NCBI RefSeq assembly: GCF_044324875.1
Contig: NZ_CP172185.1
Strand: one strand, 5' to 3'
DNA length: 64,000 nt
From: Escherichia coli
GTDB lineage: Bacteria > Pseudomonadota > Gammaproteobacteria > Enterobacterales > Enterobacteriaceae
Below, piece by piece: positions 19,045 to 58,099 of this stretch. The number at the start of each line of letters is the position of its first letter. Position 1 is the stretch's first letter. The position numbers and the translations under genes are program-made. The notes under the pieces are model-generated. The model saw only the letters and a list, made by a program, of their open reading frames with translations. It was not told where the DNA came from and ran no database searches.

Positions 19045-20025
19045 CTAACGTCCTGCTTTTAACAATAACCAGATAAACACCGGCGCACCCAACGTTGCGG
19101 TGACCACGCCAATAGGCAGCTCTGCGGCAGCTAATGCCAGGCGCGCTACAACATCGGCCAGCAGCAATGCGCTCGCCCCTGCCAGCGCGCAGCCGGGAAG
19201 TAATACGCGATGATCGGTCAAACCACATAACCGGAGAATATGTGGGATCACCAGACCAATAAAGCCGATAGCACCCGCCAACGCCACACTGACGCCAACC
19301 ATCCAGCCGGTCGCTGCCACCAGCACATTGCGCCAGAACCACAGGGGTAAACCCAGTTGCCGCGCCGAGATCTCGCCAAGTGCTAACATATTCATCGGCC
19401 TGGACTGACAACAGATCCACAACAACACGGGGATCAATGCCAGCATCAGCCAGCTTTGCCGCCAGTCTACGCCGCCAAAACCGCCCATCATCCAGTACAT
19501 CAGCTGACGTAAATCAACAGAGGTGGAAAAGTAGATAGCCCACGTCATTAGTGCGCTACAGATAATCCCTAATGCAACGCCAGCCAGCAATAACCGACTG
19601 GTCGAAAGATGACGACGGGCGAAACGTAAGAGTATTAAAGTGATGATAAGCGCGCCAGCAATCGCACACAGCCCCAGCGCCCAGTTGGGGAGTTGCCCTT
19701 GCCCAAGCAATACAGCGGCGATAAGCCCCACGCCTGCGCCATTAGAGACGCCAAGTAGTCCAGGTTCTGCCAGAGGATTTTCAAATAACGCCTGCATTAC
19801 AGCGCCGGATATAGCCAACGCCGCACCAACCAGCAATACAGCCAGCGTACGTGGCAGGCGAATCTGCCAGACGAACAGTTCGCCTCGAGGAGAAAACCAG
19901 TCACCTGGCGAGATCCATTGTTCACCGGCGCAAAGGCTTAAGAGAAGCGCCAGCAGCATCAAAACTGACAGGCATAATAACCAGCGAATATTTTGTCGCT
20001 GTTGTTGGCGGGCAAGTGTCAGCAT
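19045..20025 (-). CDS. btuC: vitamin B12 ABC transporter permease
   Basis: 326-aa highly hydrophobic ORF; FecCD-type permease; synteny. Confidence 0.95.
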
Positions 20026-20086
20026 GGTATCCGTTCTGCTGAAGTGTCATGGCGTTGATTTTACGGTGACTCTTCGACAGTGAAAA

Positions 20087-20108
20087 GAAAAAAGGCCGCA
20101 GAGCGGCC
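20087..20108. repeat. attL core, direct repeat gaaaaaaggccgcagagcggcc
   Basis: Identical 22-mer at 57761-57782; seen in sequence. Confidence 0.7.
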
Positions 20109-20200
20109 ATAATTGCAATCAAAAATCAATAATTTAAATACTTATCAATCACTTAAGAACACATTAAAATACAAGCAACCACGCAAAACGACGTGAATGT

Positions 20201-20218
20201 GGTCACTTTGTGGATCAT
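20201..20218. repeat. 18-bp repeat ggtcactttgtggatcat inside prophage left arm (possible integrase arm-type site)
   Basis: 17/18 match to 57705-57722 in same orientation; functional role is inference. Confidence 0.3.
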
Positions 20219-20631
20219 TCGTCCCCTTCTTTCTCTTTGTTCTGTTGAACGCTAATTGCGACACACGTAGCAATCAAATCTTTACATTTCTCCATATCTT
20301 CTGTCTTGCGCAACTTGATGCTTGCCACCGATTGTGGATTATCCGCTGTGGCACAATGCATTGTTATTTCAATGTCGTTTCGATGAAAGAGTCCCATAAT
20401 AGCTTTTGCAACCTCCGTCCCTTTTTCCGCGATATCAAAGATCAAAGCAAGTTTATACAAAATATCACCAGAAAAACACTCAACCCTGCTAAGACCAACA
20501 TCACATAATGAAAAATATTGCTCAACGTCCCCCTGGAGTTCGGGAGCACACACAATATCTATTTTTCCGTACTGGCCTGAATAAAAGTCACTATTAACTG
20601 TTTTTTTCACAACATCCTCCTTCTTCAGCAA
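20215..20631 (-). CDS. hypothetical acidic protein at prophage left end (C-terminal region paralogous to ORF 56096-56311)
   Basis: 138-aa ORF overlapping 3' end of int; FHRNDIEITMHC...IKLRKTEDMEKCKDLI resembles FRRNDIEIELHF...VKLRHARDVQACQCLI. Confidence 0.55.
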   Translation of the reverse strand: MLKKEDVVKKTVNSDFYSGQYGKIDIVCAPELQGDVEQYFSLCDVGLSRVECFSGDILYKLALIFDIAEKGTEVAKAIMGLFHRNDIEITMHCATADNPQSVASIKLRKTEDMEKCKDLIATCVAISVQQNKEKEGDE

Positions 20632-21595
20632 TTGGATTAAACCTCACCGCATCCTGCAAATAATCCGGTGCAAGATGGGCATAAATCATCGTTGTCTGAA
20701 TCTTTGCGTGCCCCAGAATTTTCTGGAGCGTCAGAATATTGCCGCCGTTCATCATGAAATGACTGGCGAAAGTGTGGCGCAGCGCGTGAACGGCCTGCCC
20801 GTCAGGAATGGAAGGGGCAACCGCTTTTATCGAATCGCGCACCAGTGAATAATCCAGCGCCGGAAATACCAGCTTTCCGCCCCGTTTTTTAATTTTGTCA
20901 AACAGGCTTTCAGAAATTGGAACAGTCCGGTTTTTACTGTTTTTGGTTCTGGAAAATGTGATCCGGGAATGCAGAACGCGGCGCTGTTCAAGTGCCACCA
21001 CCTCACCCCATCGCGCCCCGGTAGATAAAAGAATTTCAGTAGCTAGCCGTTCGTCGGGATGCTCTACCAGAACGTCAAGCAGCTGGAGGCACTCCTGCCT
21101 GTTCAGATACCCCATTTCGCGCTCGCTGACCTTCATCCCTTTCAGTCCGCTAACAGGGTTATCATTCTGGAAGTGACCGGATGAGATGAGTGCGGAAAAC
21201 ATCGCGCTAAGCGCACCAACCTCGCGGTTTATGGTACTTGGCTGAATCCCCTCCTCCGCTCTTGCCACGCGTAATTCCGTTAACGTGGTGGCGTTGACGT
21301 TGTTAACACGCGGATCCCCCATCGCTTCACACACGCGCTGTAATTTGAGGCGTGTGTTCCACCCCGATTTCATCAGTTGCCCGTGAAACTTCCACCATAA
21401 TTCGATAAGTTCGGACAACGAACGGCGATCGGTCGGCGCACTGTTCCATGCGTTATTTTGGTGTTGAGCTAAAACCCAGCGTTCGAACTGGATAGCCTCC
21501 GACTTTGTTTTGAACTTTTTACGAATGCGTTTACCTTTGCGCCCATCAGGACGCATATCAACCATGTAGCCACCAGGGATTGATTTTATGCTCAT
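20594..21595 (-). CDS. int: tyrosine-type site-specific integrase (P2 Int-like)
   Basis: Translation MSIKSIPGGYMVDMRPDGRKGKR...; C-terminal ...HALRHTFASHFMMNGGNILTLQKILGH...YAHL catalytic region; start chosen at ATG 21595 inside longer ORF. Confidence 0.9.
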   Translation of the reverse strand: MSIKSIPGGYMVDMRPDGRKGKRIRKKFKTKSEAIQFERWVLAQHQNNAWNSAPTDRRSLSELIELWWKFHGQLMKSGWNTRLKLQRVCEAMGDPRVNNVNATTLTELRVARAEEGIQPSTINREVGALSAMFSALISSGHFQNDNPVSGLKGMKVSEREMGYLNRQECLQLLDVLVEHPDERLATEILLSTGARWGEVVALEQRRVLHSRITFSRTKNSKNRTVPISESLFDKIKKRGGKLVFPALDYSLVRDSIKAVAPSIPDGQAVHALRHTFASHFMMNGGNILTLQKILGHAKIQTTMIYAHLAPDYLQDAVRFNPIAEEGGCCEKNS

Positions 21596-21644
21596 TGGCA
21601 TACCCCCAGCGTCACAAGCCCACCGTGCCCCCAGCGTTCCATAA

Positions 21645-25131: not shown

Positions 25132-25454
25132 GCAATCACCATGTACACACAAAAAAACCGCTTGCAACAACAAACCGGAACAGGGTACGCTTCCCCCGCA
25201 CCTCATAAAGCGGGTGCCGGGTTTCGCAGCCTGCTGACTAGCAAAGCGCACAACCGCGCCAGCGGTTTTTTTGTGCGTACTGTATTGCCACGTCTTTTTC
25301 GCATCAGAATTATGGTGGGGCGTACGGGGCCGACTTCGGTCGGGCCGGTTTCTTCGTTTGCCGGTGTTGAGAACCCCGTACGTCTCGCCACCCCGAGATT
25401 CTCAACTCTGGTTGGTGAGTATCCAAAAACTCACAAACGAAGAGGCCAAACACC

Positions 25455-55701: not shown

Positions 55702-55953
55702 ATGTTCCGTTGTCCCCTGTGCGGTGCATCCGCACGTATCCGCACCAGTCGCAATGAAAATGATTCAGGCACAGTTCGCCTGAAGTACTACCAGTGCAAT
55801 AACCTCGAATGCGGGATCGGCTTTACCACACTGGAGGGTTTTAACAAATTCACATCAAAACGCGCCCCGTCGCCGCAGGGTACAGAGCGGATACCGTGGG
55901 AAGATTTTCCGGGATCTCACAGGGGGAATGCTCAGATGAATCTTGATATTTAA
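55702..55953 (+). CDS. ogr: Ogr/Delta-family zinc-finger late transcription activator
   Basis: MFRCPLCG...YYQCNNLECG Cys4 arrangement; position after D. Confidence 0.8.
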   Translation: MFRCPLCGASARIRTSRNENDSGTVRLKYYQCNNLECGIGFTTLEGFNKFTSKRAPSPQGTERIPWEDFPGSHRGNAQMNLDI

Positions 55954-55965
55954 GAACAATAATCA

Positions 55966-56097
55966 GGTTGAGAGGACATCATAAGGCAAGTAGATTAACG
56001 GCAGATACTTTCCCGCAACCACGGGCAAGTATTTAATTATCCATGATGAAATATGACCTAAATTGTTTTTTGCCCGCCGGAAAGCGGGCATTTTTTT
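55966..56097 (+). repeat. repeat unit 1 (GGTTGAG...GTAGATTAAC...hairpin+T-run), candidate small RNA
   Basis: Shares 5' GGTTGAG, GTAGATTAAC core, TTATCCATGAT and terminal gcccgccNNNNNNgggc+T7 with units 2/3. Confidence 0.3.
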
Positions 56098-56311
56098 ATT
56101 CTTTTGTGGTTATGGGGTCATCAGGAACCACGTGCAGATTATATTTTTGTTTTTTTGGCGTTCCTCCGGCAGCAACGAGTTCATCAATAAGACACTGACA
56201 CGCCTGAACATCCCGGGCATGTCTTAGTTTCACCTTTATTGATTTAACCTTATCCTCACCGGAGGAGAAATGCAGTTCAATCTCAATATCGTTTCTTCGG
56301 AACAATCTCAT
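56096..56311 (-). CDS. hypothetical small protein, paralogous to C-terminal half of ORF 20215-20631
   Basis: 71-aa ORF with RBS AGGGGGG; similarity noted by eye. Confidence 0.5.
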   Translation of the reverse strand: MRLFRRNDIEIELHFSSGEDKVKSIKVKLRHARDVQACQCLIDELVAAGGTPKKQKYNLHVVPDDPITTKE

Positions 56312-56580
56312 ACGCCCCCCTGAATATATCAGAAATGCTAGTATCGAAAAATGAGAAAACAGTTAGACAGGAGAAACATATTAACACAAATCATTTATAC
56401 CTATAGATGAAATTATAATTTCATTCATGAATATGATAGATAACTATATTGTGAACAAAATGAAAAATGGCTAAATTAAAAATGGGCATGGAGGAATGCC
56501 TCGTAATCAGTAATACATGATCCATACTTCCTTGTTTTGCCCGCCGGAAAGCGGGCATTTTTTTGGCGGTTACCATCGCC

Positions 56581-56765
56581 TCACCTTCCTGGTTCACACA
56601 AAGCAACCCTGATTTTCCATGAAAACTTCAGGGTTGAGCCAAAAGCACAAAGACAGTAGATTAACCAAGGGTACCCGCCACCTGCCAACAGGAACGGTAT
56701 CCAGTACGTATTAATGACTGACAATTCACATTGCTGTTTTGCCCGCCAGAAGGTGGGCATTTTTT
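56581..56765 (+). repeat. repeat unit 2 (~203-bp period) ending in intrinsic terminator, candidate small RNA
   Basis: Near-identical to unit 3 with scattered substitutions; terminator stem 56740-56757 + T-run. Confidence 0.35.
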
Positions 56766-56783
56766 TGGCAGTTATCATGGACG

Positions 56784-56968
56784 CACCTTCATGACACATA
56801 TTAAGCAGACCTGATTTTTCCATGAAAAATTCATGGTTGAGACAAAAGCACAAAAACAGTAGATTAACCACGGGTGCCTGCCACCTGACAACAGGAAGGG
56901 GTGTCCATTATCCATGATATACAAACGAAAAGTCTTGTCTTTTGCCCGCCGTTGCGCGGGCTTTTTTT
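56784..56968 (+). repeat. repeat unit 3 ending in intrinsic terminator, candidate small RNA
   Basis: As unit 2; terminator stem 56943-56960 + T8 overlaps hicB stop. Confidence 0.35.
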
Positions 56969-57366
56969 TATCCAAGAACCCTGTCTGCAGCAACACGCGC
57001 CAGAAATCCAGAGCGGCTACCGTATTCAGGATGAGACTCAACGAACTGATCAATGCGACGAATAAGCAGAGATGGCAGGGTAACATTGATTTTTTCCGAT
57101 TTCCCCATCAGGCGGGACACATCCACCTCAACGAGCGCCCACACTGCATCACTGTATTCAGGATCTGATTGCCATTCATCAAGATTTGTAGCGACAGGGA
57201 TAGACTCACCAGATTCAACCAGTAATTCTACGTGTGCCTCAATGGCTTCACGGGCACTGTCTACCGCATCCTGAAAACTATCACCGCCAGAAAAACAGCC
57301 GGGCAGATCTGGGACGCGAACACCAAAAGATGAATCCCCCCGGTCAATAGCGATTGCATATAACAT
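56968..57366 (-). CDS. hicB: HicB-family antitoxin
   Basis: MLYAIAIDRGDSSFGVRVPDLPGCFSGGDSFQDAVDSAREAIEAH... typical HicB N-domain; C-terminal RHH-like tail. Confidence 0.8.
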   Translation of the reverse strand: MLYAIAIDRGDSSFGVRVPDLPGCFSGGDSFQDAVDSAREAIEAHVELLVESGESIPVATNLDEWQSDPEYSDAVWALVEVDVSRLMGKSEKINVTLPSLLIRRIDQFVESHPEYGSRSGFLARVAADRVLG

Positions 57367-57388
57367 TGAGACCTCCAGAAGGTGGGGC

Positions 57389-57568
57389 TTACAGCCCCGC
57401 CTGTTTCTTAATACTTTTTAAAGTTGGTAAAGGTATATCTTTTTGAGGGTGTTTTACCGTTACCAGCCCCTTCTTTGTCGGATGTTTGAATTGATGATGA
57501 CTCCCCTTAACCCTAACAAGATACCATCCATCCGCCTCTATCATTGCTATTGCACTTTTGCTATCCAT
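57389..57568 (-). CDS. hicA: HicA-family toxin (59 aa; absent from ORF track)
   Basis: Manual translation of minus strand: MDSKSAIAMIEADGWYLVRVKGSHHQFKHPTKKGLVTVKHPQKDIPLPTLKSIKKQAGL; 20 bp upstream of hicB. Confidence 0.75.
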   Translation of the reverse strand: MDSKSAIAMIEADGWYLVRVKGSHHQFKHPTKKGLVTVKHPQKDIPLPTLKSIKKQAGL

Positions 57569-57704
57569 CCCCCCGTACTCCGTCTTTCGTTGTTGGAGTT
57601 ATTATAACCCCAACAACTAGTCAAAGCAAGGGTTCGGAGTTATTAGAGTTATAGAATAATTGACTGCCTCCCCAAAACTGCGGCAAGAAAAAACCACTGA
57701 CCAC

Positions 57705-57722
57705 GGTCAATTTGTGGATCAT
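57705..57722. repeat. 18-bp repeat ggtcaatttgtggatcat inside prophage right arm
   Basis: 17/18 match to 20201-20218. Confidence 0.3.
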
Positions 57723-57760
57723 GAATTAATTTTTATTTATAAATCAATGCATTATACAAA

Positions 57761-57782
57761 GAAAAAAGGCCGCAGAGCGGCC
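57761..57782. repeat. attR core gaaaaaaggccgcagagcggcc (part of ihfA terminator hairpin)
   Basis: Identical to 20087-20108; followed by T-run, i.e. intact terminator after ihfA. Confidence 0.7.
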
Positions 57783-57799
57783 TTTTTAGTTAGATCAGA

Positions 57800-58099
57800 T
57801 TACTCGTCTTTGGGCGAAGCGTTTTCGACCCGGCTTTTTAACTTCTGCCCGGGTCTGAAGGTCACCACGCGCCGTGCTGTAATGGGAATATCCTCGCCCG
57901 TTTTCGGGTTACGTCCCGGGCGTTGATTCTTATCACGCAGATCGAAGTTACCAAAACCAGAGAGTTTCACCTGTTCGCCGTTTTCCAGAGCGCGACGGAT
58001 CTCTTCGAAAAACAGTTCAACCAGTTCTTTGGCATCCCGCTTGCTAAGCCCAAGCTTATCAAACAGATATTCTGACATTTCAGCTTTTGTAAGCGCCAT
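57800..58099 (-). CDS. ihfA: integration host factor alpha subunit
   Basis: 99-aa [57 protein letters not shown]... Confidence 0.95.

Follow-up and report, generated by a model that had tools for sequence, protein, structure and literature searches.

Two diverged members of PHROG 14142 on the opposite arms of a P2-like prophage in Escherichia coli, one of them an exchangeable cassette between int and att

The stretch of Escherichia coli DNA analysed here, 64,000 nucleotides in length and referred to as the window, contains a P2-like prophage with a small open reading frame (ORF) near each of its ends, a longer one beside the integrase gene (orfA) and a shorter one beside ogr (orf71). This arrangement raises the questions of whether the two ORFs are truly related, how two relatives came to lie on the opposite arms of one phage, and what such proteins might do there. 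The prophage is 37.6 kb long and lies between ihfA and btuC, inserted at the ihfA terminator. Host sequence common to 5,425 E. coli genomes (i.e., nearly all of the 5,426 complete genomes) runs up to 20108 and begins again at 57758, and therefore the element is taken to extend from 20109 to 57757, with both ORFs inside it. Along the minus strand come ihfA, attR, hicA-hicB, tandem units of ~203 bp, orf71, ogr (convergent) and the phage body, followed by the C repressor, int, orfA, an att arm of ~110 nt, attL and btuC (Table 1). The right part of the window is 100% identical to E. coli strain F374 (NZ_OY754371.1). This att site is unmentioned in Nilsson et al. 2011. In a 2026 survey of P2-like viruses (PMC13100340), the BtuC permease was called a phage “auxiliary metabolic gene”, a call that may be a prophage-boundary artefact, because this integrase type inserts directly beside btuC.

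Table 1. The prophage, its borders and the features discussed, in window positions.
Feature	Position	Strand	Description
btuC	19045-20025	-	host gene flanking the prophage
attL core	20084-20108		25-bp exact direct repeat AAAGAAAAAAGGCCGCAGAGCGGCC; also the ihfA terminator hairpin
conserved att arm	20116-20218		between cassette and att core
orfA	20215-20610	-	131 aa from the probable start; full-length PHROG 14142 member; cargo cassette between int and attL
int	20594-21598	-	P2-like tyrosine integrase; last ~13 codons within the swappable cassette
isrK and C4 antisense RNA	25198-25395	+	early region; isrK (Rfam, 64.7 bits) directly before C4 (79.2 bits)
ogr	55702-55953	+	late-gene activator; conserved neighbour of orf71
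orf71	56096-56311	-	71 aa; C-terminal-only family member; convergent with ogr
hicA-hicB	56968-57568	-	complete, separate toxin-antitoxin pair; between attR and the repeats
STnc540 sRNA	57703-57858	-	Rfam match; ihfA 3' end, attR core and ~55 nt of phage DNA
attR core	57758-57782		second copy of the 25-bp direct repeat AAAGAAAAAAGGCCGCAGAGCGGCC
ihfA	57800-58099	-	host gene flanking the prophage

The initial annotation, which had the positions, the minus strand and the quoted peptides of both ORFs right, proposed that they are related through a diverged C-terminal region, and the alignments bear this out. In BLASTP, the longest reading of orfA (138 aa) and orf71 share 21 of 56 residues (38%) without a gap at E = 6e-11, a significant similarity that covers residues 72-127 of orfA and pairs Met79 of the 138-aa reading (Met72 of a 131-aa reading) with Met1 of orf71. 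The phrog_14142 profile matches both proteins, orfA end to end (positions 1-128 of 128, E 1.6e-52) and orf71 only over positions 72-127 (E 4.9e-12). Given the BLASTP value and the common profile, the similarity is far above chance, and coincidence is ruled out as an explanation. An internal duplication, in which the N-terminal half would be homologous to the C-terminal half, was also considered and rejected (hhalign probability 0.1%). Membership in PHROG 14142 gives the two ORFs a name and explains no function, as the group has no assigned one.

The gene beside int is real, and the part of its earlier description that needs correction is the start. Translation probably begins at the GTG at 20610, giving 131 aa, rather than at the TTG at 20631 (138 aa). 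The GTG, which falls within the last 17 nt of int, is preferred because it follows AAGGAGGA at a spacing of 5 nt, because the PHROG profile is matched from its first position, and because the RefSeq homologue, WP_000416304.1, is 131 aa long. Alleles of orfA in other prophages differ by 30–40% at the protein level, with synonymous sites near saturation, and omega against other alleles is 0.16–0.24 in each half of the gene; orfA is thus a coding sequence under purifying selection. The two products had been described as small acidic proteins in att-proximal positions. Both terms suit orfA, which has a pI of 4.8 and ends 107 nt from the att core, and neither suits orf71, which is slightly basic (pI 8.7) and adjoins ogr, separated from the attR core by ~1.45 kb that include hicAB and the tandem repeats.

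The clearest evidence on the nature of orfA comes from strain F374, which carries the same prophage with flanks 99.5% identical, and in which two unrelated genes replace window positions 20221-20634. The replacement interval (NZ_OY754371.1 828639-829779) encodes members of phrog_5176 and phrog_17809, both PHROGs without an assigned function, and the window stretch that it replaces takes in orfA with its ribosome-binding site, and ~13 codons at the end of int; the cassette boundary at 20634 was set by this comparison. Other E. coli prophages with the same integrase have a phrog_4293 gene together with a gene for a DUF1640 membrane/coiled-coil protein in the slot, and in strain CM2, orf71 is present beside ogr and the int-to-att interval is empty. 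The integrase occurs in 298 of 5,426 complete E. coli genomes, 158 of which have an orfA allele. The window's own allele was found in none of the 5,426, the common allele (WP_000416304.1, which EPEC E2348/69 carries) being 77% identical to it at the DNA level. Thus orfA is a single-gene exchangeable cassette in a variable int-to-att slot: it lies between the int stop codon (20594) and the att core, the content of the slot varies and the flanks are kept. It had been called an accessory (“moron”) gene, which agrees with the exchange in F374, with the related prophages in which unrelated cassettes take its place, and with a tblastn search of 50,697 isolate phage records that returned no homologue. 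Since the family is absent from these records, it does not belong to the core equipment of P2. The locus is ordinary accessory cargo near the integration site of P2-like phages. It also offers a clean natural case of one cassette being exchanged for another in the slot between integrase and att, which has received little study, and the breakpoints of the exchange can be placed to within a few bases.

In prophages with other cassettes, the ~100 nt that separate the cargo from the att core are kept at 76–79% identity. As this arm is conserved whatever the cargo, it is probably an Int-binding arm. An 18-nt motif, GGTCACTTTGTGGATCAT, occurs on both arms of the prophage (20201-20218 and 57705-57722, 17 of 18 positions identical) at 93 and 36 nt from the att core, with overlap of the orfA stop codon. 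Each copy also begins a small ORF (MIHK...), and the motifs are candidate arm-type Int binding sites.

A gene in such a place might serve the integrase itself, as a directionality factor or a regulator of Int. The constant att-proximal position of the family in P2-like phages and in a P4-like satellite would fit an accessory factor of integration or excision, as would the overlap of the orfA start with the int stop, which suggests translational coupling, and the arrangement of the circular phage, in which attP has a copy on each side and both copies share the strand of int. However, orfA is dispensable, as unrelated cassettes stand beside the same integrase; CM2 and most full-length prophage contigs have no such gene next to int; and the integrases and att sites that accompany members of the same clade differ. 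The fold is predicted to be ferredoxin-like, and neither Pfam nor this fold gives a helix-turn-helix or winged-helix signature of the Xis, Cox or AlpA type. The directionality factor of P2 itself is Cox. As orfA is freely exchanged for other genes, or missing, next to one and the same integrase, we regard a role in integration or excision as very improbable.

Unlike orfA, which covers the family profile, orf71 (WP_001236182.1 in RefSeq, “hypothetical protein”) corresponds to the C-terminal part of it, and no N-terminal remnant was found upstream in any frame. It stands beside ogr at 98–100% nucleotide identity in prophages at ihfA, copA, serS and zapB, the CM2 prophage being one of them. Compared with the orf71 of IMG/VR locus L050, the window's copy differs at 4 of 216 nt (98% identity), and identity drops to 76% in the 200 nt upstream; four differences have no statistical power and are too few for a within-lineage dN/dS. 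A Shine-Dalgarno sequence precedes the ATG and is a canonical AGGAGG in L050. Such a gene might be a dead relic, 5'-truncated from a full-length gene on the ogr side, with the long copy alone being functional; it would have remained open because the conserved internal Met72 supplies a start, and would have been kept through its linkage to ogr. Full-length genes do occupy the same ogr-side position in eight loci (L010-12, L040-43, L045), and the right end of these prophages is full of repeated arm remnants, including the 203-bp units and decayed orf71 copies (L063, L064). Damage is plain to see in other short forms (L004, L005), the databases contain truncated or frameshifted variants (P0006-P0008), and the AF2 topology places residues 72-86 within the N-terminal domain, all of which would suit a relic. 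By contrast, the ogr-proximal copy is intact and conserved at 98–100% at four att sites, while the extra att-distal copies in two genomes have acquired frameshifts and stop codons, and the relic reading also has against it the excess of ORF identity over that of the upstream DNA, the Shine-Dalgarno sequence, and at least three independent short-form lineages that begin at the same Met. High conservation could also result from hitch-hiking with ogr in a young lineage. We consider the relic reading a minority possibility to be taken seriously, and the sequence comparisons favour, short of proof, a functional orf71.

Short forms occur elsewhere too. Those of L051, of the P4-like satellite and of several database singletons start at the same Met as orf71, and the short forms keep exactly the most conserved part of the family. 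Compared with the C-terminal halves of long forms, orf71 and the other short forms have pN well below pS. In the case of L051 against the C-terminal half of the long form in L013, pN is 0.088 and pS is 0.73, as would be expected of a short form that is either constrained or very recently truncated. The satellite's short form (P0019) is present on 10 contigs, with GAGG 6 nt upstream of its start. Products of decay are also found: the gene in L004 is a frameshifted long gene, and the L005 sequence, homologous from about residue 45 onwards, has no start. Every long form has Met72, and purine runs resembling a Shine-Dalgarno sequence precede it at inconsistent spacing, so that internal initiation in the long genes is possible but unsupported.

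The right end of the prophage, where orf71 lies, contains several repeated elements. Extra att-distal copies of orf71 (L063 6842-7047 and L064 5670-5875) are 80% identical with 10 gaps and several stop codons, and 72-nt fragments of it (94%) occur at L063 6320-6391 and L054 1-72, beside the intact ogr-proximal copy; the pattern suggests stacked remnants of earlier right arms. In the window, three tandem units of ~100 nt are located downstream of ogr on the plus strand (55966-56099, 56632-56768 and 56835-56971), within the ~203-bp repeats. Each has a promoter-like TTGAGA-N17-TAGATT (a promoter scan found two of them), a 5' stem-loop, an AU-rich spacer and, at its end, a strong Rho-independent terminator (TGCCCGCCGGAAAGCGGGCA followed by T7), and the stem-loops show compensatory differences between units. 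An extra terminator lies at 56538-56566, and orf71 is flanked by unit 1 on one side and by a fourth terminator copy on the other. Judged by these elements, the units have the apparent layout of Hfq-type sRNA genes; Rfam gave no family above the gathering score for the repeats beside orf71. In sister prophages at other att sites, the position of hicAB is taken by a Hok/Gef gene, a 73-aa ORF or ~2 kb of unannotated DNA, and thus the ogr-to-att interval is a second variable cargo zone.

How the long and the short copy came into one prophage can be read from the positions of their relatives. The family is small, with 20 of 1.84 billion representative sequences matching at E ≤ 0.001, including a few spurious repeats. 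It is limited to enterobacteria, and every database name is “hypothetical protein”. Its members are common in E. coli, Salmonella and Citrobacter, individual alleles reaching at least 1,000 contigs, and the literature search returned no paper naming the accessions or the PHROG. Positions were surveyed in 41 IMG/VR loci, which were found with the C-terminal alignment, and in contigs from protein databases. The long form follows this integrase type directly in 24 loci, is convergent with ogr at the other end of the prophage in 8 (in L010 beside host fabF), and stands at the prophage end beside raiA in the Salmonella-type loci L013 and L056. The short form was found beside ogr in 4–5 loci, and after the alpha primase of a P4-like satellite (L006) that also carries AlpA, Ash, Derepression and Toprim genes. 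On the circular phage, all of these positions fall within the ogr-attP-int interval on the int strand, and it is the side of attP that varies.

Pairwise codon comparisons over 52 shared codons place orf71 closest to the C-terminal halves of the long forms on the ogr/late-gene side (pN 0.28–0.30); the long copy of the window itself is the most distant (pN 0.44). On these distances, the two ORFs belong to separate clades of the family, orf71 to an “ogr-arm” clade and orfA to an “int-arm” clade. A recent tandem or in-phage duplication can be set aside: DNA similarity between the two ORFs is negligible (21 of 27 nt at best), and orf71 is nearer to the ogr-arm long forms. Because the classes are linked to position on either side of attP, the two copies would have come with different arms of a mosaic phage, and the arm-swapping mosaicism of P2-like phages, not duplication within a phage, most likely united them. 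Occupation of both arms is rare, being found in the window and on one IMG/VR contig, 2778261161_000003 (loci L030 and L051). The window and this contig each have a long form on the int side and a short form of another lineage on the ogr side, and one might imagine that the two proteins are a pair, separated by integration at attP, in which the short protein is a partner or antagonist of the long one through their common C-terminal module; the invariant Met72, as a conceivable internal start, could point the same way. Most prophages have one form only, however (at least 6 full-length prophage contigs have only the int-side long copy, and CM2 has only the short one), and the inconsistent spacing of the Shine-Dalgarno-like motifs before Met72 also speaks against such a pair, to which we assign only the slightest probability. 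Arm swapping that brought together an int-side and an ogr-side member would account for both copies.

The sequences and the predicted fold provide some indications of what the proteins might do. The most conserved stretch of the family is IMGL(F/L)xRNDIEIE, followed by KLR...D...C..L, also written M-G/R-L-F/L-x-R-N-D-I-E-I-E ... K-L-R ... D ... C ... L. AlphaFold, run once with 4 and once with 15 sequences, gave the same topology at a mean pLDDT of 70–71: b1 (14-21), a1 (23-35), b2, b3 (53-59), a2 (60-73), b4 (80-86), b5 (94-99) and a3 (103-129). The predicted fold is a generic ferredoxin/PII-like domain with a long C-terminal helix, of which orf71 would keep only the C-terminal b-hairpin and the helix. 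In the model, b4 (residues 80-86), which is the short form's first strand, is part of the ferredoxin-like sheet at the N-terminus, and hence the C-terminal piece may not fold on its own as modelled; the short form alone would have to fold differently, e.g., as a dimer. The likeness to ferredoxin-like domains such as PII-like, ACT and DUF2179 is one of fold only, in a model of pLDDT 71 and at 7–13% identity; unlike these, the family has an extra strand and a 27-residue C-terminal helix, and there is no match at the level of sequence profiles. Pfam returned nothing even at E ≤ 10 for the single sequence or for 15 members, NCBIfam and PDB sequence profiles gave no significant match, and PADLOC-DB v2 had no family at E ≤ 1 for either protein. 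Nor do the two genes resemble a type II toxin-antitoxin pair, as orfA is a single-gene cassette and orf71 stands alone between terminator hairpins.

The position of orfA can be compared with known places of phage defence genes. According to the hotspot passage of bioRxiv 10.64898/2026.02.27.708500, the stretches “integrase to att” of P2 and “primase to att” of P4 are minor hotspots of defence genes, and the first of them is reported to hold only 3% of P2 defence systems. Like the P2 hotspot described there, orfA lies exactly between int and att and is swapped between near-identical prophages, and like the P4 hotspot, a short family member follows the alpha primase of a P4-like element. Unlike the defence genes of those hotspots, orfA and orf71 match no known or candidate defence model, and orf71 is on the ogr arm, a side absent from that passage. 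The family member of locus L048 has a HEC-04 candidate defence ATPase (E 3e-204) inserted directly beside it. On this hotspot location, a role specifically in defence or exclusion is a minority possibility at most.

Some features of a broader role can nevertheless be proposed. In the P2 Pc operon model, C and int are transcribed together in the lysogen. Considering this model, and that orfA is on the same strand as int, follows it and overlaps it, the protein would probably be made from the repressor-integrase transcript of the lysogen. It would most likely act by binding a partner, either a protein or a small ligand, and not by catalysis, as there is no catalytic signature and the predicted module is ferredoxin/PII-like with a C-terminal helix. 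From its position, we infer a lysogenic-conversion factor in conflicts between phages or between phage and satellite, and not a part of the integration machinery. The lysogenic-conversion genes old, tin and Z/fun of P2 exclude other phages. orfA and orf71 resemble them in being non-essential, variable, prophage-borne single genes outside the core operons, and differ from them in lying at other loci of the P2 map and in having no sequence or domain similarity to them. Overall, with moderate confidence, we favour the reading that orfA and orf71 are two diverged members of PHROG 14142, an int-att cassette and a short copy on the ogr arm, probably of mosaic origin and with a possible role in conflict. 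A more detailed version is unlikely as a whole: the family would be a non-enzymatic conflict effector with the C-terminal b-hairpin-helix module as its active part, the module would be made as a protein of 57–71 aa (orf71 and the P4-like form, possibly also via Met72 in long genes), and the ferredoxin/PII-like N-terminal domain would be a regulatory sensor. Should the family prove to have a phenotype, the prophage-borne conflict genes would gain a very small, domain-less member, and a “hypothetical” protein that is present on thousands of contigs from E. coli, Salmonella and Citrobacter would receive a function.

Two RNA elements of the prophage are also worth noting. In the early region, isrK and the C4 antisense RNA form a P1/P4-type antisense immunity element within a P2-like phage. 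At the other end, the STnc540 match spans the att site, and upon integration, phage DNA, which still scores, therefore takes the place of the distal part of this sRNA region.
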